From Bacteroidales bacterium (GTDB lineage Bacteria; Bacteroidota; Bacteroidia; Bacteroidales; UBA12077), in the NCBI GenBank assembly GCA_028282785.1, contig JANQHE010000071.1, positions 4,423 through 68,422 of the forward strand: a stretch of DNA of 64,000 bases. The letters are read 5' to 3'. The notes under the pieces are model-generated. The model was not told the origin of the DNA, did not search any database, and saw only the letters and a list, made by a program, of their open reading frames with translations. A program made the translations under genes and the position numbers. Below, piece after piece: positions 8,754 through 18,761 of the stretch (positions are counted from its first letter, which is position 1; the number at the start of each line of letters is the position of its first letter).

Positions 8754-11252
8754 TTACTTAATGATTAACTTTTTAGTTATACTGTTTAATTCGGAATTTA
8801 TTCTGATTATGTAGATCCCTTTATTTAAATCTGAAATATCAATATTCTCAATATACGACTTACTATTAACTGATCTATTATTCAGGTAAATTAGTTTACC
8901 TTCTACATTATAAATAGAAACATCAATTTCCTCGATCATTTCTTCAGATACTAACTCGACATTTAGATTATCCGTTGCCGGATTTGGATATACTTTTAAC
9001 TTGCTGTTACTAATGATATCATTAGTCGATGCAACATTACCTTGAATTTTTAAGTTATCAAGAGCCCATCCCCATCCAACCGTAAGTTGATCTGAGTATA
9101 ACGTAAATCTTACCAATACGGTGTCGTCAGCTGCAAAATTAGAAGTGCTAAGCATATCCACACGTTTCCATTCATACATAGATTCCGTACCATCTGAACC
9201 TGCATTGTAAGCATTTAAAAATGCAGAACTGATATTACAATCCCAACCATTTTCAAAATTGTGCCAGGTATCGCCGTTGTCTTTTGAGCCTTCTATAACT
9301 GCATAATCCCAGAAATTACTACTACCATAAATTGCACCATCATCTCCCGGCTCAATAATTGCAACCTGATCAAACTGTATATAAGCTTCAGAATCTCTAA
9401 TAATTACCGGTGATTTTAAAGTTGCTCGGTAATATATTTCATTCTCACTATTAAGTCCGTCACCTTCCTCATAAGGATGTGGGCTATTTAAACAAGCCGA
9501 TGAGAAATTAGTTGGCTGATCAACGAATAAGCCATCGAAAATAAACTTTGAATCAATATCGGATTCGTCAAAAGTTATAACTACTTCATTAACAGGTTCT
9601 GCTACATCAAAGATCTCAATTTCAAAGTACCCCGTACTTGGTAATTCTGACGTATTGGGTGTACCTGCTCTATCAACTGCGTGAAATTTGTATTTAAAAA
9701 CATCGCCATCTGCTAATCCTTCGTCATTTAATGAAACAGTTACATCATAAATTGGATAATCATCATATATGGTGTGCTGAACGAAATCGCATGTTATCGT
9801 CTTAGAAGTATTATCATTTATTTTATATTCCAGATAAATTGAGTCCAGCTCGATATTATCTTTACATTCCACAGTAAACTCAAATTGTTCCGTGGTTGCA
9901 GATGCAGTAGTAATGGCTTGATCATGAATTATTTCAGGGGCAATAATGTCATCTCCAACATAAAAACTAAATACTGTATCGATGGATGTTATATTTTCCA
10001 CACCCTGAACCGGAAAATAGTATGTTTTATTCTGACCGTTTTGAGCTTCAAAATAATAGCTGTATGTATTATCATTAGCTATAGCAGGTAGCTCGGCAGT
10101 GTACAACGTATCATTTGTGGTTGCCATATCTACAATTGTCTCTGTTGAAAAATTATCTGAAGAATAATGTATTTTAACAGTTCCGGGAGTTATACTGGAA
10201 TCAGCATAAATATCTAACTCAACAGTAATTGGATCTGGCATACTTTCAATATCTATAATTTCGTCATGCACAAATAAAGGCCTTATCCAACCCATATCTT
10301 CGAACATACCTAATGTAACCGGACCCGGATCATGCGTAACTTCACCTGATCCTGAAGAATAGGTCATCATGGAATTAACAGTTCCATTAAAAATTTCATC
10401 TAAATGAGAATAACTGGAACCGGGATTCCATTCAGGTGGTGCATACAATTTAACATTATTGCCTCCATTGGCAGCAACACTGGATTCACTATTATAAAAT
10501 AGATTATTAGATGTAAATTGTAATTCCAATTGACTGGAAGGATTTGTAAAAGTTGCTGTATCAATAATATATTCATCATCGCTATTTATAACATAACGAT
10601 CATAAATTAATGGAATATTTGTACCCCATCCCCACTCACCAAGGTTGTCTTCTACGTTACCAGTTCCAATAAAACCCAAACCATGGCCCAATTCATGCAT
10701 TACAACAGAAATAAAGTCGTATTGATCATTTGGACAATTTCCGTCTAATCCCAGATACCAATTAATTGACCTGCTAAAATTCGCAGTAATATCCGATTGT
10801 TCAGGTGCCAGATCATAGCCGGCTAACTTATTAGCAAGTGCAATTGGATACCAGGTATAAACAATTGGTGCATTTTTAAAATTTCTATAAAACGTGGTTG
10901 GGGAACATGAGCCTAAAACTCCAAGTTCTAATGTTTTCCACGTTGCATCTATCCTTATGGTATCAGTAGAATATACTAAATACGACCATAACTCAACCGC
11001 CTTTGCAAAAGCAGCTTTTGCATCTTCGGTAAATCCGTTATATGTAACTTTAAAATTTGCTGTTGGTTGTGCACCACTTTTTGCACGATTTTGTGCGTTA
11101 ATTCTAAAGTTTTCAACTTTCCCACTTGAAAGAATTTTAACTTCGGGTATTTTCTTATGATCAGGATATTTAATACCCTGCTGAGCATAATTTGTCTTAT
11201 CAATAAATACTAAAGACAATAAACAAATAAATAAGAGTGTAAATTTTTTCAT
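8754..11252 (-). CDS. Secreted zinc metalloprotease-like protein with T9SS C-terminal sorting domain
   Basis: 832 aa. Signal peptide MKKFTLLFICLLSLVFI. HExxH site VVMHELGHGLGF. C-terminal ~80 aa KLKVYPNPATDNLNVE...GIYIIRINSE...KKLIIK are typical of the Por/T9SS CTD. Confidence 0.75.
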   Translation of the reverse strand: MKKFTLLFICLLSLVFIDKTNYAQQGIKYPDHKKIPEVKILSSGKVENFRINAQNRAKSGAQPTANFKVTYNGFTEDAKAAFAKAVELWSYLVYSTDTIRIDATWKTLELGVLGSCSPTTFYRNFKNAPIVYTWYPIALANKLAGYDLAPEQSDITANFSRSINWYLGLDGNCPNDQYDFISVVMHELGHGLGFIGTGNVEDNLGEWGWGTNIPLIYDRYVINSDDEYIIDTATFTNPSSQLELQFTSNNLFYNSESSVAANGGNNVKLYAPPEWNPGSSYSHLDEIFNGTVNSMMTYSSGSGEVTHDPGPVTLGMFEDMGWIRPLFVHDEIIDIESMPDPITVELDIYADSSITPGTVKIHYSSDNFSTETIVDMATTNDTLYTAELPAIANDNTYSYYFEAQNGQNKTYYFPVQGVENITSIDTVFSFYVGDDIIAPEIIHDQAITTASATTEQFEFTVECKDNIELDSIYLEYKINDNTSKTITCDFVQHTIYDDYPIYDVTVSLNDEGLADGDVFKYKFHAVDRAGTPNTSELPSTGYFEIEIFDVAEPVNEVVITFDESDIDSKFIFDGLFVDQPTNFSSACLNSPHPYEEGDGLNSENEIYYRATLKSPVIIRDSEAYIQFDQVAIIEPGDDGAIYGSSNFWDYAVIEGSKDNGDTWHNFENGWDCNISSAFLNAYNAGSDGTESMYEWKRVDMLSTSNFAADDTVLVRFTLYSDQLTVGWGWALDNLKIQGNVASTNDIISNSKLKVYPNPATDNLNVELVSEEMIEEIDVSIYNVEGKLIYLNNRSVNSKSYIENIDISDLNKGIYIIRINSELNSITKKLIIK

Positions 11253-11353: not shown

Positions 11354-11821
11354 ATGAGAAATAGAACCATAATTGGCCTAATTGTTCTCTTAACAATTTT
11401 AACTATAACATTAAACTCTTGCCTGGGCACTAAAAAAATTGAATCGGAAAAGCCGGTAATAAAGCTAAAAACGACCGCATGCAACGGAACTTGTCCGGTT
11501 TTTTCGTTAGAAATATATTCGAATGGGACAACCATATTAAACGGGAAAGCCTTTATAGAATACATAGGGCAATATCAAGGAAAATTAGATGATGATAAAC
11601 TTAAAGCGCTTTTAATAAAGTTTGATGAATCCAACTTTTTTAGTTTTGAAAATAAGTATACATCGACTTTTATGGATTTACCTGCTAAATATATAACGTA
11701 TTCAAAAGGAGATCAGTCAAAAGAAATCATGGCTTATGATAATATTCCTGAAGAACTTACCAATTTAATTAAAACAGTAAGAGAATTAATTAATCAAGTT
11801 GATTGGAAAAAGATAGATTAA
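11354..11821 (+). CDS. Lipoprotein, DUF6438-like (tentative)
   Basis: 155 aa. Lipobox LTITLNSC. CNGTCPVF motif followed by SNGT...G...Y.G pattern. Confidence 0.45.
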   Translation: MRNRTIIGLIVLLTILTITLNSCLGTKKIESEKPVIKLKTTACNGTCPVFSLEIYSNGTTILNGKAFIEYIGQYQGKLDDDKLKALLIKFDESNFFSFENKYTSTFMDLPAKYITYSKGDQSKEIMAYDNIPEELTNLIKTVRELINQVDWKKID

Positions 11822-11831
11822 CCGGTGTAAT

Positions 11832-12365
11832 CTACCTTTCAACCTCAATTAAAATATCATCTTTCATTACAGTATCTTCCGGGTTAAAATTGATCTTATT
11901 TATTTTCCCTTGAATATTCGAAACAATTTCGTTTTGCATTTTCATTGCTTCAAGGATCAATAAAGGTTCTCCTTCCTTAACCACCTGGTCTTTTTCGACT
12001 AAAAATTCTACAATTTTCCCTGGCATCGGAGCCTGTATTCTTTCAACTTTTGATTGTTCCTTATTCTTTGCTAAATACTTTCGGCGTTTATAGGAGAAAG
12101 GAGATTCAACAGATATGGAGTAACTAACTCCATTTACTAATATTTCGTATTGATTCTGATTTTTTTCGATTATCTCAACCTGGTATTTCCTCTTTTTCCA
12201 AACGATGTATACAAATCCTTGTTTATCAGAAACAATTTCAATGGGGATGTTTTCTTTTCCACGCTTTATATAAAGCTCTTTAGGATTTATAAATTCAAAT
12301 TTCTTGTTCTTTTCAGTACAAGCAATAAATTTCTGTTTACCTTTTTTTGACTTTGAGAACATCAT
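11832..12365 (-). CDS. Biotin carboxyl carrier (biotin/lipoyl attachment) subunit of acyl-CoA carboxylase
   Basis: 177 aa. C-terminal biotinyl domain with the EAMKMQNEI biotinylation motif. Lies in an operon with the biotin carboxylase and carboxyltransferase. Confidence 0.8.
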   Translation of the reverse strand: MMFSKSKKGKQKFIACTEKNKKFEFINPKELYIKRGKENIPIEIVSDKQGFVYIVWKKRKYQVEIIEKNQNQYEILVNGVSYSISVESPFSYKRRKYLAKNKEQSKVERIQAPMPGKIVEFLVEKDQVVKEGEPLLILEAMKMQNEIVSNIQGKINKINFNPEDTVMKDDILIEVER

Positions 12366-12380
12366 AATTTTAGGTTTATG

Positions 12381-13895
12381 TTATAAGGATTTTAATCTTT
12401 TATTCATTAACCAGGGAGTCATATTTTTACCCTTTTCATAATCAACGTAAGTTTGGTCTTCAGTTTCCAATTCTACATTGTAGTTAAGTGCAGCCCAGAA
12501 TGCAGCTATCATTTCTTCATCTTCTTCCTGGTAATATAACTTTTTCATATCTTTTGCAATGAAAGATGTAGAAATATCACCACTCTTAAATTTATGATGA
12601 TTTAAAACTGCCTTACAAAATGGGATTGTAGTCTTTATTCCTTGTATTTGCAGTTTGTTTAGGGCCGTTAACGTATTTGTTATGGCTTTTTCCCTTGTCT
12701 CGCCGTAACAAATAAGTTTTGCCAGCATCGAATCAAAACTTGCGGTAACATTCGATCCTTCTGTAATTCCGGAATCGAATCTACAGGTTTTCCCTTTTGA
12801 GTAACTGATTTTTTCTATTGTTCCAAGGTAAGGCGTAAACCCAGCCTGAACATCTTCTGCATTAATTCTACATTCTATTGCCCACCCCTTAAGTTTTACA
12901 TCCTCTTGTCTGATTGTTAATGTTTCGTCTTGTGCAATTCGTATTTGCCATTCAACCAGATCATAACCGGTTACCATTTCGGTTACCGGATGCTCGACTT
13001 GTATTCTTGTATTCATTTCCATAAAGTAGAAGTTCCCTGATTCGTCTAATAGGAACTCTACGGTTCCTGCATTTCTATAATTAGAAGCTTTGGCAATATC
13101 TATAGCTGATTTTCCCATTTTAGCGCGCAATTCTTCATTTAAAGCAACAGAAGGCGATTCTTCTATTAATTTCTGATGTTTCCTTTGAATGGAGCATTCG
13201 CGTTCTCCTAAATGAATAATATTATCATGATGATCAGCAAGAATCTGGAATTCAATATGACGAGGGTTTCTAACATATTTTTCCATGAATACGGAAGGAT
13301 CGGCAAAAGCCTTCTCCGCTTCATTTTGCGCCATACGGAACATTTTTTCAATATCCGATTCCTTTTCAACAATTCTCATTCCACGGCCGCCTCCTCCGGA
13401 AGCTGCTTTTAATATAACAGGATATCCTATTTTTTGTGCTAACTGTTTAGCGTGTTTATAATCCCGGATGTTCCCGTTACTACCTTGTAACAAAGGCACC
13501 TTATGGCTGGCTGCCAGTTGTTTGGCAATTGTTTTGTTACCAAGCTTGTAAATAGAATCCGGAGAAGGCCCTATGAATATGATCTTTTCATCATTACATT
13601 TTTGAGCAAAATATGGATTCTCAGCCAGGTAGCCATAACCCGGGTGAACTGCATCAATATCATATTCCTTGGCAGCATAAATAATCCTGTCTATATCCAG
13701 GAATTCCGGTATATCACTAACAATTTCCGTGAAGTCAATAATTTTGTCCATGAATTGCAAATAATAAGCTCCTGGCTCCTTTGAGGTTTTTATTCCATAG
13801 GTTTTAATACCCATTTTTTTTGCAGTTTCAGAAATACGAATTGCAATTTCACCTCGATTTGCTATTAGAATGGATTTGATTTTTTTCATGATCAA
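12381..13895 (-). CDS. accC: Biotin carboxylase (acetyl/propionyl-CoA carboxylase alpha-type subunit)
   Basis: 504 aa. ILIANRGEIAIR N-terminus. ATP-grasp motifs GYPVILKAASGGGGRGMRIV, EMNTRIQVEHPVTE, and ECRINAED. Confidence 0.92.
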   Translation of the reverse strand: MIMKKIKSILIANRGEIAIRISETAKKMGIKTYGIKTSKEPGAYYLQFMDKIIDFTEIVSDIPEFLDIDRIIYAAKEYDIDAVHPGYGYLAENPYFAQKCNDEKIIFIGPSPDSIYKLGNKTIAKQLAASHKVPLLQGSNGNIRDYKHAKQLAQKIGYPVILKAASGGGGRGMRIVEKESDIEKMFRMAQNEAEKAFADPSVFMEKYVRNPRHIEFQILADHHDNIIHLGERECSIQRKHQKLIEESPSVALNEELRAKMGKSAIDIAKASNYRNAGTVEFLLDESGNFYFMEMNTRIQVEHPVTEMVTGYDLVEWQIRIAQDETLTIRQEDVKLKGWAIECRINAEDVQAGFTPYLGTIEKISYSKGKTCRFDSGITEGSNVTASFDSMLAKLICYGETREKAITNTLTALNKLQIQGIKTTIPFCKAVLNHHKFKSGDISTSFIAKDMKKLYYQEEDEEMIAAFWAALNYNVELETEDQTYVDYEKGKNMTPWLMNKRLKSL

Positions 13896-13910: not shown

Positions 13911-15467
13911 TTAGAGAGGTATATTTCCATGCTTTCGTGCAGGTTGATCTACATGTTTATTCTCTAAAGTTTTAAACGCCGTAATTAATTTATTACGGGT
14001 ATCAGCAGGGTCAATTACTTCATCAATATAGCCCTTTTCATCTGCTATATAAGGATTTGCAATATCTTGCCTGTACTTGGCTGCAAACTCTTTTTTTAGT
14101 TTTTTAGGATCTTCAGCATCTTGTAATTCTCTTTTATATAAAATAGATACAGCACCTTCGGGGCCCATAACCGCTATTTCAGCAGTTGGCCATGCAAAAC
14201 TGTAATCACCACCTACATTTCGACTATTCATAACACAAAATGCACCACCATAAGCTTTTCTTAGTATTACCGTAATTTTAGGTACTGTAGCTTCACTATA
14301 GGCAAACAAAAGCTTAGCTCCGTGTTTAATAATTCCACTATGTTCCTGGTCCAGACCTGGTAAAAATCCGGGAACATCTTCCAACGTAAGAATTGGAATA
14401 TTAAATGAATCACAAAAACGAATAAATCTTGCTCCTTTTAGCGATGAGTTTATGTCTAAAACGCCCGCTAATATTTTTGGTTGGTTAGCGACAATTCCTA
14501 TGGCTTTACCATTAAGTCGAGAAAAGCCTACGACAATATTTGGAGCATATTGTTCCGATACTTCGAAAAAAGAATCCTGATCCACAATTAGATCAATAAC
14601 TTTTTTTACATCGTATGGTTTATTCGGGTCATCAGGAACTATACTTCTTAACTTATCAATATTCTTTTCCTTCTTAGATTTAGGTTCAACAAATGGAGGA
14701 TTCTCAAGATTATTTGAAGGGAAAAATGACAATAGCTTCTTAACTCCTAAAATTGTATTTTCTTCGTCCTCATAAATAAAGTTAGCAACACCACTTTTAC
14801 GTGCATGAACTTCTGCTCCTCCCAGCTCATCAAATGTAACTTCTTCGTTTAGTACCTCTTTCACTACATCGGGACCTGTTACAAACATATAACTTGTATT
14901 CTTGGTCATGAATACAAAATCGGTGAGGGCAGGGGAATAAACCGCTCCACCAGCCGCAGGGCCCAAAATAACCGATATTTGCGGTATTACACCGGACGAC
15001 TGAATATTGCGATGAAAGATACTCGCGTATCCCGATAAACTGGCAACACCTTCCTGGATCCTTGCTCCACCGGAATCAATTAATCCAACTATAGGAGCAC
15101 CAACGCGTAAGGCTAATTCCTGTACTTTCATGATCTTTTTGGCGTGTACAGACCCTAAAGAGCCTCCCATAACAGTAAAGTCTTGAGAATAAACGTATAC
15201 TATACGCCCGTTAATTCGACCATGACCAATTACAACACCATCACCAAATGCTTCGTCAATCCTGCCAAAACCAGTATCCGGTGTAGCAGAGGTAACAAAA
15301 GCATCAAGTTCTTCAAAAGAATCTTTGTCGAATAATAGCGCTATTCGTTCACGAGCATGCAATTTACCTTTGGCATGTTGCTTTTTAATCTTTTCAGGAC
15401 CATTTTGAACCTGGAACCGTTCTATCCTGTTGAGAAAATCTTTGTAGATTTTACCGTTAATATCCAT
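13911..15467 (-). CDS. Acyl-CoA carboxylase carboxyltransferase (beta) subunit, propionyl-/methylmalonyl-CoA type
   Basis: 518 aa. Conserved blocks HAKGKLHARERI, FTVMGGSLG, DSGGARIQEG, GPAAGGAVYSPALTDF, AYGGAFCVM. Confidence 0.92.
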   Translation of the reverse strand: MDINGKIYKDFLNRIERFQVQNGPEKIKKQHAKGKLHARERIALLFDKDSFEELDAFVTSATPDTGFGRIDEAFGDGVVIGHGRINGRIVYVYSQDFTVMGGSLGSVHAKKIMKVQELALRVGAPIVGLIDSGGARIQEGVASLSGYASIFHRNIQSSGVIPQISVILGPAAGGAVYSPALTDFVFMTKNTSYMFVTGPDVVKEVLNEEVTFDELGGAEVHARKSGVANFIYEDEENTILGVKKLLSFFPSNNLENPPFVEPKSKKEKNIDKLRSIVPDDPNKPYDVKKVIDLIVDQDSFFEVSEQYAPNIVVGFSRLNGKAIGIVANQPKILAGVLDINSSLKGARFIRFCDSFNIPILTLEDVPGFLPGLDQEHSGIIKHGAKLLFAYSEATVPKITVILRKAYGGAFCVMNSRNVGGDYSFAWPTAEIAVMGPEGAVSILYKRELQDAEDPKKLKKEFAAKYRQDIANPYIADEKGYIDEVIDPADTRNKLITAFKTLENKHVDQPARKHGNIPL

Positions 15468-15748
15468 ACAAAGAGGATTAGTTAAACTTTATGTTAAATA
15501 ACATATTTTAGTTTTTAGGCACATTTATAACATGGTATATACTCATTTGTTCAACAAAATTTGAATGATTTTTTACTTATTTGATATACCGTTTTTTACC
15601 TAAATAACGACATTAAATATATGAAATATTTGAATTGGTCAAATTTTTTAAAGGAAAAAGTAACTAACAGTATTAATATTTTTATTTTGTTTATCAGTTA
15701 GTTAAAAATTAAATGGGTGCCTGTATAATGCTGTCGATAGGTGATTGA

Positions 15749-15775
15749 TGAATCTGGTCGAAAACTTCAAACGTT
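15749..15775 (+). promoter_or_regulatory. ECF-sigma-type promoter candidate TGAATC-N17-CGTT
   Basis: ~107 nt upstream of the WD40-caspase ATG. The architecture resembles the classical ECF GAAC/CGT promoter layout. A near-twin, TGAATC-N16-CGTC, sits at 63914-63939 (minus strand). Confidence 0.35.
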
Positions 15776-15881
15776 TGCAAAAGTTGAAAAAAATAAATCA
15801 TTCTTACATTAATATAATTTAGAATAATTTGAAAAATGAATATGAATATTTAACTTGCTTTGCTCTAAAATTCTTATATCT

Positions 15882-18185
15882 ATGCGACACTATTCAGTTT
15901 TACTATTTCTTTTCTTATTTATACAATTATCTGCACAGGAGTTTTCTTATAAGGAAAAAAAAGAACTTAAAGCTTATCCTGATTATATTATGGATAGCAG
16001 ATTTTCTCCGTTTCGAAATTATTTTGCTATTGCCATAGGTAATAATACCCTGGAGATTTATGATAAAGACTGGAATAAGATTTTTTCCCATCAGGGTAAT
16101 CCAAAATCTGTAGGTGGCCATATGGCTTTTTCCCCGGATGAGAAATACCTTGCTTATGCAAAATACAAAAGTGATAACGATATAGCAATTATCAGGCTTG
16201 AAGATCAAAAAGTAATTCAGGTTTTAAATGGTCATTCATTTCATATTAATAAACTTGAATTTAGCCATAATGGAAAATTTCTGGCAAGTGCAGCTTCGGA
16301 TGATGCTGTTTGTTTATGGAAATGGGAGCAGGATCAAATGGTTCTTTCACAGAAATTTTTTTACGAGGAAAAAGCAAGAGGAGTAAGTTTTAATTTTAAT
16401 GATGATTTATTTGCGGTGGGTGGTGACGATGCAATGATCTATTTGTATAAAAATCAAAATGAGAAATATAGCCTTTATGATACTTTACATACATCAAAAT
16501 ACTGGATATATGATATTTGCTTTCATCCATTAAAGAATCAACTGGTAACCGCTTCTCAATACGAAGTGAGACGATATGATATAAATAAAGGCAAATTGTC
16601 TTTTAGAGATAGTTTAAAAATAAGGGTTAACCGAACATTAAAATATAATTCAACCGGCGAATATCTTGTTTTAGGTAAAAACCAGGATTTGGTAATTTTA
16701 AAGATGTTGCCAAATGAAATAACTGAGTTTGAATCCATATACCGGCACAGTGATCATGTATTTGGAGGAAACTTTAGTGATGATGGGTTGTTTCTTACTT
16801 CATTCAGTTCCGATAGATCATCTATTGTTTGGGAACTGACAGGAGTAAAACCAAGCCGAAAATCATTAATAACTGATTATATGGATGGTGAATTGACATC
16901 AGCTCAAAAATTAATATTAACAGCTGATGTTATCGAAAACATTTTAGAAAGTTTGGATTCAAAATTAACAGCGCCTCGGGATGAATTTGAAACTACTATT
17001 CAGTATACAGAACGGAGAGAAAAGCTTAAAGCTGAAGTTCTTTCTCAATTACAAAACTATACTGAAAAGCATTTTGGTTTAAAATTGAAATCAGGAAATA
17101 AAATTAATATTCCCATTGAACGAATCATTGGATACAATGCCGACTTACAAATTTACAAAGTTAGATTTTTAGAAACTGACGCAGGTATCAAAATCCCCAT
17201 TGAGGATGCAAAATCATTCAAATCAAATTGGGAGAAAGCAGTTTTACAAGCTAATAAAACTAAAAGTAAAGATGGGATCTCGTATGAATATTCGGATTTT
17301 GTATTGATTCATCCGTTGAATAGAAAGTCTTTTCCGGTAACTCCAATTGAAAATCCTTTTCATGTAAAGAGAATAACACGAAATGCCCAATCCGATAAAG
17401 ATAGAGCAGAAGCTGGTACCGTAACTCCTGTAAAAAAAGCTGTTGGAGAAGATGTGTTGGGTGTAGATCGTGCATTGATCTTCGCAACTAACATTTATGA
17501 TTCATTTTCAGAATTGGTAAATCCGGTTTTGGATGCGACCACTGTTTCGGAAGAATTGCAGACAAATTATTTTGTACAAACAGAACTTGTAATAAATCCA
17601 ACCTTAAAGGAAGCTATTGAAAAAATCAGAGAGTATGCAAAACTTGATTATGAGCCGAATGATAATCTGTTGATCTTTTTTGCAGGGCATGGAATTTACG
17701 ACGAAGTTTTTAAAGAAGGATATGTCATATCTCGCGATTCAAAATCTGATGATGTTGCAAAAACTTCTTATTTATCGCATTCAAATCTTCGTACAATGAT
17801 CAATAATATTCCCTGTGGACATATATTATTGGTAATGGATGTTTGTTTCGGAGGTACATTTGATCCTTTAATTGCATCCAGAAGCAGAGCAGCTGATTTA
17901 TACGCCGAAGTTACCAGTGAGGAATTTATAGCTCGCAAAAAAAAATATAAAACAAGATTGTATTTAACTTCTGGGGGTAGAGAGTATGTTCCTGACGGCC
18001 GCCCGGGTCATCACTCACCATTTGCAAGAAAGTTTTTAGAGGCATTAAGAAATTATGGTGGTCATGATGGGATACTAACAATAAATGAAATTATCCAGTA
18101 TGTTGAAAAAGTAGAACCACAACCCAGGTTTGGAGAGTTTGGGGACAATGAACCTGGTAGTGATTTTATATTAATGGTTAAATAA
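15882..18185 (+). CDS. Exported WD40-repeat protein fused to a C-terminal caspase-like (peptidase C14) domain
   Basis: ATG at 15882 gives signal peptide MRHYSVLLFLFLFIQLSAQ. N-terminal WD40 repeats (GHSFHINKLEFSHNGKFLASAASDDAVCLWKW etc.). C-terminal caspase dyad motifs LLIFFAGHG (His) and ILLVMDVCFGG (Cys). Confidence 0.8.
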   Translation: MRHYSVLLFLFLFIQLSAQEFSYKEKKELKAYPDYIMDSRFSPFRNYFAIAIGNNTLEIYDKDWNKIFSHQGNPKSVGGHMAFSPDEKYLAYAKYKSDNDIAIIRLEDQKVIQVLNGHSFHINKLEFSHNGKFLASAASDDAVCLWKWEQDQMVLSQKFFYEEKARGVSFNFNDDLFAVGGDDAMIYLYKNQNEKYSLYDTLHTSKYWIYDICFHPLKNQLVTASQYEVRRYDINKGKLSFRDSLKIRVNRTLKYNSTGEYLVLGKNQDLVILKMLPNEITEFESIYRHSDHVFGGNFSDDGLFLTSFSSDRSSIVWELTGVKPSRKSLITDYMDGELTSAQKLILTADVIENILESLDSKLTAPRDEFETTIQYTERREKLKAEVLSQLQNYTEKHFGLKLKSGNKINIPIERIIGYNADLQIYKVRFLETDAGIKIPIEDAKSFKSNWEKAVLQANKTKSKDGISYEYSDFVLIHPLNRKSFPVTPIENPFHVKRITRNAQSDKDRAEAGTVTPVKKAVGEDVLGVDRALIFATNIYDSFSELVNPVLDATTVSEELQTNYFVQTELVINPTLKEAIEKIREYAKLDYEPNDNLLIFFAGHGIYDEVFKEGYVISRDSKSDDVAKTSYLSHSNLRTMINNIPCGHILLVMDVCFGGTFDPLIASRSRAADLYAEVTSEEFIARKKKYKTRLYLTSGGREYVPDGRPGHHSPFARKFLEALRNYGGHDGILTINEIIQYVEKVEPQPRFGEFGDNEPGSDFILMVK

Positions 18186-18224: not shown

Positions 18225-18761
18225 ATGAAAACAATCGTGGTTTATTATTCAAGGAAAGGCAGCAATAGTTATTTAGCCGGAAGAATATCCAGTACTTTGT
18301 CATGTGAAATTGAAAAAATCAGACCGAGATTAAATGCTTTTATGCTTTTTTTAATGGGTATTCACTTAGGAATTAAACCTCTAAAGAATGAAATCAAGGA
18401 TTACGACCGGGTTATTTTATGCGGACCAATATGGGTTGGAAGATTTATAGCACCATTACGAAGTTTTGTAAAAAAATATAAAAAGCAAATTAAGGAATTA
18501 GTGTTTGTTACTTGTTGTGGCAGTACATTTGATAAAAAAAATGAAAAGTTTGGGCATGGCCTTGTATTTAACAAAGTTAGGAAAATATTGAATGGAAAAT
18601 TGGTTCATTGTGAAGCTTTTCCAATTGATCTGGTTCTATCCGAAGATAAAAAAGATGACGAAGCAGCATTCATGGAAACACATTTAAATGACTCTAATTT
18701 TACAGGAGAAATCCTGGAAAGATTTAATGAATTTATTCAAAAGTTAAACCGGTTTAATTAA
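18225..18761 (+). CDS. Flavodoxin-like fold protein
   Basis: 178 aa. N-terminal MKTIVVYYSRKGSNS flavodoxin-type phosphate-binding loop, then DRVILCGPIW. Confidence 0.6.
   Translation: MKTIVVYYSRKGSNSYLAGRISSTLSCEIEKIRPRLNAFMLFLMGIHLGIKPLKNEIKDYDRVILCGPIWVGRFIAPLRSFVKKYKKQIKELVFVTCCGSTFDKKNEKFGHGLVFNKVRKILNGKLVHCEAFPIDLVLSEDKKDDEAAFMETHLNDSNFTGEILERFNEFIQKLNRFN

Follow-up and report, generated by a model that had tools for sequence, protein, structure and literature searches.

A predicted exported WD40–caspase protein of Bacteroidales and its modular relatives

Gene, export and domains

We analysed a stretch of 64,000 nucleotides from a Bacteroidales bacterium (assembly GCA_028282785.1, contig JANQHE010000071.1, positions 4,423 to 68,422), referred to below as the window, which carries at 15882-18185 on the plus strand a gene for a predicted exported WD40–caspase protein with full-length homologues at 50-94% identity. 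The open reading frame encodes 767 aa from an ATG at 15882 to a stop codon at 18183-18185 and lies within a single open frame that spans 15855-18185. Upstream of codon 19, this frame offers only two in-frame starts, the ATG at 15882 and a TTG at 15855. The 120 best homologues start at the equivalent Met and share an organisation in which a variable presequence, composed of Met, Lys or Arg and a hydrophobic stretch, precedes a conserved mature N-terminus (QEFSYKEKKEL here, Q(E/D)F(S/T)YKEKKEL in the family). Since residues 19-36 are conserved as protein, the start must lie upstream of codon 19, and as both available codons encode a signal peptide, the objection that the true start lies downstream and leaves the protein without one is refuted.

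The signal peptide comprises residues 1-18 (MRHYSVLLFLFLFIQLSA; 15882-15935, plus strand), and cleavage by signal peptidase I (SPase I) is predicted between A18 and Q19, which would expose a Gln. The first residues of 121 family members were aligned to the mature N-terminus, and in 112 of these the presequence is 12 aa or longer (median 19 aa). A hydrophobic core is present in all 112 (minimum 9-residue hydropathy 2.17), Lys or Arg occurs in the n-region of 111, the residue at -1 is Ser, Ala, Gly or Thr in 101, and the residue at -3 is small or aliphatic in nearly all. Gln occupies +1 in 105 of the 112 homologues, which fits the Q-rule of Bacteroidetes, whereby SPase I substrates carry Gln at +1 and this residue, once exposed at the N-terminus, cyclises to pyroglutamate (PMC5837995, PMC10653852). 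Together with the conserved mature N-terminus, these statistics strongly support a Sec/SPase I signal peptide removed between A18 and Q19, and bear out the preliminary description of this protein as exported.

None of the 112 homologues has a lipobox Cys at +1, so the protein is not a lipoprotein processed by signal peptidase II. The C-terminal sorting domain of the type IX secretion system (T9SS; PF18962/TIGR04183) gave no NCBIfam match and is not among the Pfam matches listed, and there is no room for it because the caspase domain is conserved to its very last residues; the Por_Secre_tail model (PF18962) does match a neighbouring gene, a match that assigns the organism to Bacteroidota and shows that the model works in this genome. 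Since neither a lipobox Cys nor a T9SS domain is present, the mature protein is expected to be soluble in the periplasm. A periplasmic WD40 domain has a Bacteroidetes precedent in PorE (PMC7192894, PMC12773672), but PorE lacks a protease domain.

Following the signal peptide, residues 19-322 (15936-16847, plus strand) form a predicted seven-blade WD40 beta-propeller, in agreement with the propeller of about 300 aa proposed previously. Pfam WD40 and beta-propeller families cover residues ~20-330, and a profile of 36 orthologues matched bacterial and eukaryotic WD40 structures among the PDB sequences at E-values up to 1e-123 (2ymu). The full-length AlphaFold2 (AF2) model, with a mean predicted local distance difference test score (pLDDT) of 79.7, shows seven blades with 28 strands across residues 22-320 at pLDDT >90. 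In this model the propeller is closed and includes the conserved mature N-terminus as strand 22-29, and Foldseek matched it to canonical WD40 propellers (5yzv, TM-score 0.89).

The region between the propeller and the caspase domain had been described as a linker of about 200 aa, which does not hold, as residues 325-496 (16854-17369, plus strand) constitute a conserved folded domain and disorder is limited to residues 497-525. This middle domain reaches pLDDT 94-98 in a second model, for which an alignment of 92 sequences was used. It consists of a helical part (326-397), with a PRDEFETT..Y..RR motif and one 26-residue helix, and a beta-rich part of eight strands (401-488), with a GYNAD..IYK motif, and ends in NPF. 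Invariant positions are D367-E368-F369-E370-T371, R378, Y418-N419-A420-D421, Y425-K426 and N491-P492-F493. The domain has no significant match in Pfam at E-values up to 10, nor among PDB sequences in either single-sequence or profile searches. Two candidate identities were rejected, namely the Glucodextran_B-like pre-caspase domain of a relative (hhalign probability 0.35%) and DUF4852, a lead from the ESM Atlas that scored just 0.69 and was not found in the genome. Matches occur in 3 of 401 genomes of a phylum sample, two of them distant. Distant copies at 26-30% identity are found in a 1195-aa TPR-CARDB-caspase protein (L006:1632-5219, plus strand) and a 799-aa WD40 protein (L007:891-3290, minus strand), both from other Bacteroidota lineages, in which they are flanked by repeat modules on one side and by the C-terminal part on the other. 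These similarities suggest that the middle domain is a recurrent adaptor domain outside Pfam coverage.

The Lys/Arg-rich tether that joins the middle domain to the caspase domain (residues 497-525; 17370-17456, plus strand) is predicted to be disordered, with pLDDT <50 in both models, and is unconserved in the alignment. The predicted template modelling scores of the monomer models are low (0.62 and 0.56) while the pLDDT of the individual domains is high, a combination that fits domains on a flexible tether.

The C-terminal domain (residues 526-767; 17457-18182, plus strand) was previously described as a caspase-like C14 fold with an intact His/Cys dyad, and Pfam, Foldseek and residue conservation all agree with this assignment. 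Pfam family PF00656 (Peptidase_C14) matches residues 530-741 with an E-value of 1.5e-15 and 58 bits against a cut-off of 21.4. In the second AF2 model, residues 529-767 have a pLDDT of ~90, with the exception of loop 663-674, and the best Foldseek match of the caspase model is the MALT1 paracaspase (E 2.6e-10, TM-score 0.67 normalised to the target). Further matches include Arabidopsis metacaspase 9 (AtMC9), caspase-9, caspase-3 and yeast Yca1. Across these top matches, MALT1 included, E-values span 1e-10 to 1e-7 and TM-scores reach 0.70 under the same normalisation. A single-sequence search of the PDB sequences found nothing for this domain; the 92-sequence profile retrieved caspase-1, caspase-4, Yca1 and MALT1 at E ~1e-3 and aligned ffaGHG with fMSHG, the catalytic-His motif of caspase-1. 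The catalytic residues are His603 in FFAGHG (codon 17688-17690) and Cys655 in MDVCFGG (codon 17844-17846). Across the 36 orthologues and sets of 79 and 92 wider caspase relatives, His603 never varies. The same is true of Cys655 in the orthologues and in the 92-sequence set, while in the 79-sequence set it is at least 90% conserved. Gly604 and Asp653 show little or no variation in the orthologues and the wider clade.

In metacaspases and MALT1, the Asp of a D-x-C motif lines the S1 pocket, where caspases have a Gln (QACxG). Here, Asp653 stands two residues before Cys655 and completes such a motif, and in the alignment with caspase-1 a non-basic residue, Leu545, falls opposite the region of the S1 residue Arg179. 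Because of these two features, and because the best fold match is the Arg-specific MALT1, our best guess is that the enzyme cleaves after Arg or Lys. The flexible loop 663-674 that follows the catalytic Cys carries a nearly invariant Arg669, and both this loop and the Lys/Arg-rich tether are candidate autoprocessing sites.

Modular relatives and known systems

How common the architecture is was assessed with the middle domain and caspase module (residues 325-767) as the query of an exhaustive HMMER search against 1.84 billion cluster representatives (clusters at 50% identity). The number of clusters matched was 12,081 at E ≤1e-3, and 897 of them reached E ≤1e-30. Outside the set of orthologues, proteins of 236-1368 aa with unrelated N-terminal parts end in a domain that shares 50-62% identity with the caspase module on its own. 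Pfam was applied to 79 of the 149 closest representatives: every one has Peptidase_C14, 32 carry a Glucodextran_B-type Ig-like domain, 15 have WD40 and 12-13 have TPR. A signal-like N-terminus was recognised by a crude hydropathy test in 113 of the 149 closest cluster representatives, many of the others being fragments. Since the caspase module recurs C-terminally behind varied modules, mostly in proteins with a signal peptide, these comparisons define a large modular clade of the form 'signal peptide, binding module, C-terminal caspase', of which the WD40-first arrangement is one common version. As judged from the same domain assignments, the pattern is one in which binding modules are swapped on a common catalytic module.

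The architecture had initially been regarded as unusual, a view that is not sustained by the frequency of signal-like N-termini among the closest representatives or by the literature. Prokaryotic caspase homologues are fused to WD40 more often than to any other partner (10.9% of the sequences surveyed), and N-terminal helices have already been noted in such proteins as 'likely signal peptides' (PMC3501461). Pseudo-orthocaspases exported by twin-arginine translocation have also been described (PMC6426788). Full-length orthologues of ~767 aa (50-94% identity) are numerous in Bacteroidales, Marinilabiliales or Bacteroidota metagenome bins, where they are annotated as 'caspase family protein' or 'WD40 repeat protein'. 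Of 201 genomes sampled evenly across the order, six gave a match, comprising the genome itself, three with matches over most of the length and two with matches to the caspase domain only. Within Bacteroidota, the gene is an unremarkable member of a large family that is annotated in generic terms and has yet to be studied biochemically.

Four more Peptidase_C14 genes, encoding 486, 622, 717 and 669 aa, are present in the same genome on contigs C3, C39 and C34 (L005:1456-2916 and L009:1486-3354 on the minus strand, L010:37-2190 and L011:181-2190 on the plus strand). Three of the four products have a clear signal peptide ending in AQ or SQ, one of which carries a Glucodextran_B-like Ig domain, and the fourth has TPR repeats. 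Given the signal peptides on most of these paralogues, the caspase complement of this genome appears to be mostly exported.

Bacterial caspase homologues have mostly been discussed as cytoplasmic cell-death or defence enzymes. By contrast, the size of the Bacteroidota clade described here and the prevalence of signal-like N-termini among its closest members locate a sizeable part of the diversity of prokaryotic caspases in the periplasm; beyond that, the present gene adds no new principle. The protein shares with the prokaryotic caspase homologues known as orthocaspases (MEROPS C14B; PMC3501461) the C14 His/Cys dyad, the D-x-C motif and the fusion to WD40, and some of these also have signal-like helices. 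However, the well-described WD40 orthocaspases are cytoplasmic proteins with the order caspase-NACHT-WD40, in which the caspase comes first, whereas here the order is signal peptide, WD40, middle domain and caspase, and there is no NTPase. MALT1 (PDB 3v4o, 3uo8) has the same fold and an Asp two residues before the Cys, but this eukaryotic protease signals in the cytoplasm, carries death and Ig domains and depends on dimerisation for its activation; the two share only 12-13% sequence identity, and a homodimer is unsupported in the present case. An N-terminal propeller followed by a C-terminal catalytic domain is likewise found in the S9 peptidases, such as prolyl oligopeptidase and DPP4, although their catalytic fold and mechanism differ. 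Propellers of S9 peptidases pack onto the active site, whereas a disordered tether separates the two domains here and no docking is predicted. Gasdermin-activating and EACC1/CHAT-type proteases also combine a caspase fold with repeat 'sensor' modules, but they are cytoplasmic and encoded in operons with a gasdermin, NTPase or effector in defence islands, unlike the exported, stand-alone protein considered here. As a clean stand-alone representative, it could be the starting point for characterising the clade and its unnamed middle domain biochemically for the first time.

Proposed function and alternatives

A genuine C14 fold, a propeller and a signal peptide together lead us to expect action outside the cytoplasm. 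We propose, as a reading that we favour by a small measure, that the protein is a stand-alone extracytoplasmic, most likely periplasmic, protease of the C14 caspase superfamily (orthocaspase/metacaspase-like) with a docking propeller. SPase I would cut A18|Q19 and leave the mature protein soluble in the periplasm, where docking of a protein substrate or a ligand would fall to the propeller and probably also to the middle domain. Cleavage after Arg or Lys by the tethered caspase domain would follow, and autoprocessing at the Arg669 loop or the Lys/Arg-rich tether may activate the enzyme or free its catalytic domain. Such a protease would serve in envelope protein processing, quality control or signalling and not in cytoplasmic death or defence. 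The preliminary description had already pointed to a role apart from that of the gasdermin-activating proteases, and its grounds stand in so far as the protein is exported, catalytically intact and unaccompanied by a gasdermin-type system, but not in so far as they invoked an unusual architecture.

Several observations weigh against this proposal. The P1 specificity is a prediction from motifs and fold matches, and the protein, rather than staying in the periplasm, may be released in outer-membrane vesicles or by another route. For a complex of residues 20-496 with residues 526-767 the model score was 0.00, no different from the controls; it neither supports nor counts against occlusion of the active site by the propeller, a question raised in the preliminary description. 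A homodimer model of the caspase domain reached 0.28 (controls 0.00, mark 0.42), with an interface formed by helices 575-587 and 625-642 and not by the canonical caspase strand; this result likewise speaks neither for nor against activation by dimerisation. Our literature search found no paper characterising an exported WD40–caspase, nor any biochemical study of a member of the family. Finally, no RNA run is listed for the window, and the DNA runs that hold it are coral and marine metagenomes.

The main rival explanation, which we consider unlikely, is an extracytoplasmic signalling protease in which capture of a ligand or protein by the propeller triggers cleavage of a regulator anchored in the membrane (an anti-sigma factor, a sensor phosphatase or cyclase, or a CHASE2-type protein) and so relays an envelope signal into the cell. 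The layout of repeat sensor, tether and caspase resembles that of switchable proteases, and several genes for extracytoplasmic function (ECF) sigma factors were reported in the window by an earlier note on its letters. However, a partner of this kind is adjacent in none of eight neighbourhoods (the window, four close and three distant relatives), and the -35 word of the ECF promoter proposed for the gene is not conserved. A broader speculation, to which we assign a somewhat lower likelihood still, sees in the exported Bacteroidota caspase clade a periplasmic equivalent of the sensor-protease machines of the cytoplasm. Interchangeable modules of the WD40, TPR or Ig type would recognise foreign (phage or toxin) or self (stress) proteins, and a tethered Arg/Lys-specific caspase would be released onto an envelope target, with the middle domain as the coupling element.

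Bacteroidota export many proteases of clan CD, a role in polymer degradation has been suggested for Bacteroidetes metacaspases (PMC4933709) and the source is a coral-associated metagenome, all of which would suit a degradative nutritional protease on the surface, in vesicles or in the medium, like gingipains or clostripain-type clan CD enzymes. We regard this as improbable, since the protein has neither a T9SS C-terminal domain nor a lipobox and hence no known outer-membrane route, the WD40 propeller and conserved adaptor domain point to a specific partner over bulk digestion, and the gene lies outside any polysaccharide-utilisation or peptide-uptake locus. More doubtful again is a defence or programmed-death effector acting from the periplasm in the manner of gasdermin-activating or CHAT/caspase proteases. 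A constant protease that carries differing binding modules is reminiscent of immune receptors, and the protein has a weak PADLOC match to 'caspase' (E 5.8e-7) and an NCBIfam match to caspase_w_EACC1 (NF047832), but both matches are sub-threshold and generic to the caspase domain, and the latter, at 57 bits, falls far below its cut-off of 140. Moreover, export takes the protein away from cytoplasmic targets, and its gene order is common to close relatives, unlike that of a mobile defence island. Annotation of the neighbours, among them genes for an acyl-CoA carboxylase, a flavodoxin, MGMT, a glyoxalase and a redoxin, confirmed the initial observation that no gasdermin-like or other effector gene is adjacent; no gasdermin, NTPase, EACC1 or other defence gene was found nearby, the neighbours in the window being metabolic or repair genes and the distant orthologues sharing none of them. 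A non-catalytic scaffold that only binds a partner would have precedents in the bacterial pseudo-orthocaspases (PMC6426788). This is highly improbable, given that the known pseudo-variants replace His and Cys, whereas both residues, along with Gly604 and Asp653, are retained here.

Gene neighbourhood and upstream region

The caspase gene is divergent from an acyl-CoA carboxylase operon on the minus strand (13911-15467, 12381-13895 and 11832-12365). On its 3' side, a gene on the same strand (18225-18761) starts after 39 nt and encodes a protein matching Flavodoxin_5, which supports the earlier description of the downstream product as flavodoxin-fold, although its adjacency is lineage-specific. 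Given the short gap, the shared strand and the lack of a terminator-like site between them, the two genes may be co-transcribed. MGMT, glyoxalase, redoxin and YccF genes follow on the other strand. Gene order is kept in relatives of 78-94% identity, with the flavodoxin gene present 3' of the caspase gene in four close relatives and absent from one that is 78% identical (L014) and from all distant ones; it was rejected as a partner on these grounds. In three orthologues at 51-53% identity every neighbour is different, and as the neighbourhood is shared by close relatives only, the gene has no conserved partner. Beyond the carboxylase operon, the gene at 8754-11252 (minus strand) encodes an 832-aa T9SS cargo protein with a Por_Secre_tail and no other Pfam domain, and adjoins a gene for a DUF6438 protein (11354-11821, plus strand).

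Conserved elements of the intergenic region were sought by footprinting in an alignment of five relatives. An ECF-type promoter had been proposed at TGAATC (15749-15754)-N17-CGTT (15772-15775). The CGTT of its '-10' lies in a conserved block, TTCAAACGTTTGCAAA (15766-15781, plus strand), and CGTTTG is conserved throughout the alignment, but TGAATC is not, with even the 94%-identical relative reading TAAAAA. Since the -35 word is unconserved, the ECF promoter reading is unsupported. A second conserved block, ATGAATATTTAACTTGC (15842-15858, plus strand), is located 24-40 nt before the ATG and is preceded by a Bacteroidetes -7-like word, ATAATTTG (15825-15832, plus strand); the block may be a promoter, leader or operator. 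A scan for sigma-70-type promoters gave fewer sites than shuffled sequence.

Two further elements lie between the carboxylase operon and the caspase gene. A perfect palindrome, ATGTTA-AA-TAACAT (15491-15504), is situated ~25 nt 5' of the carboxyltransferase gene (start 15467, minus strand), and both arms are retained across the five relatives in the alignment, making it a candidate operator of the acyl-CoA carboxylase operon. The other is a third conserved block, TTAAATATATGAAATAT, at 15613-15629.

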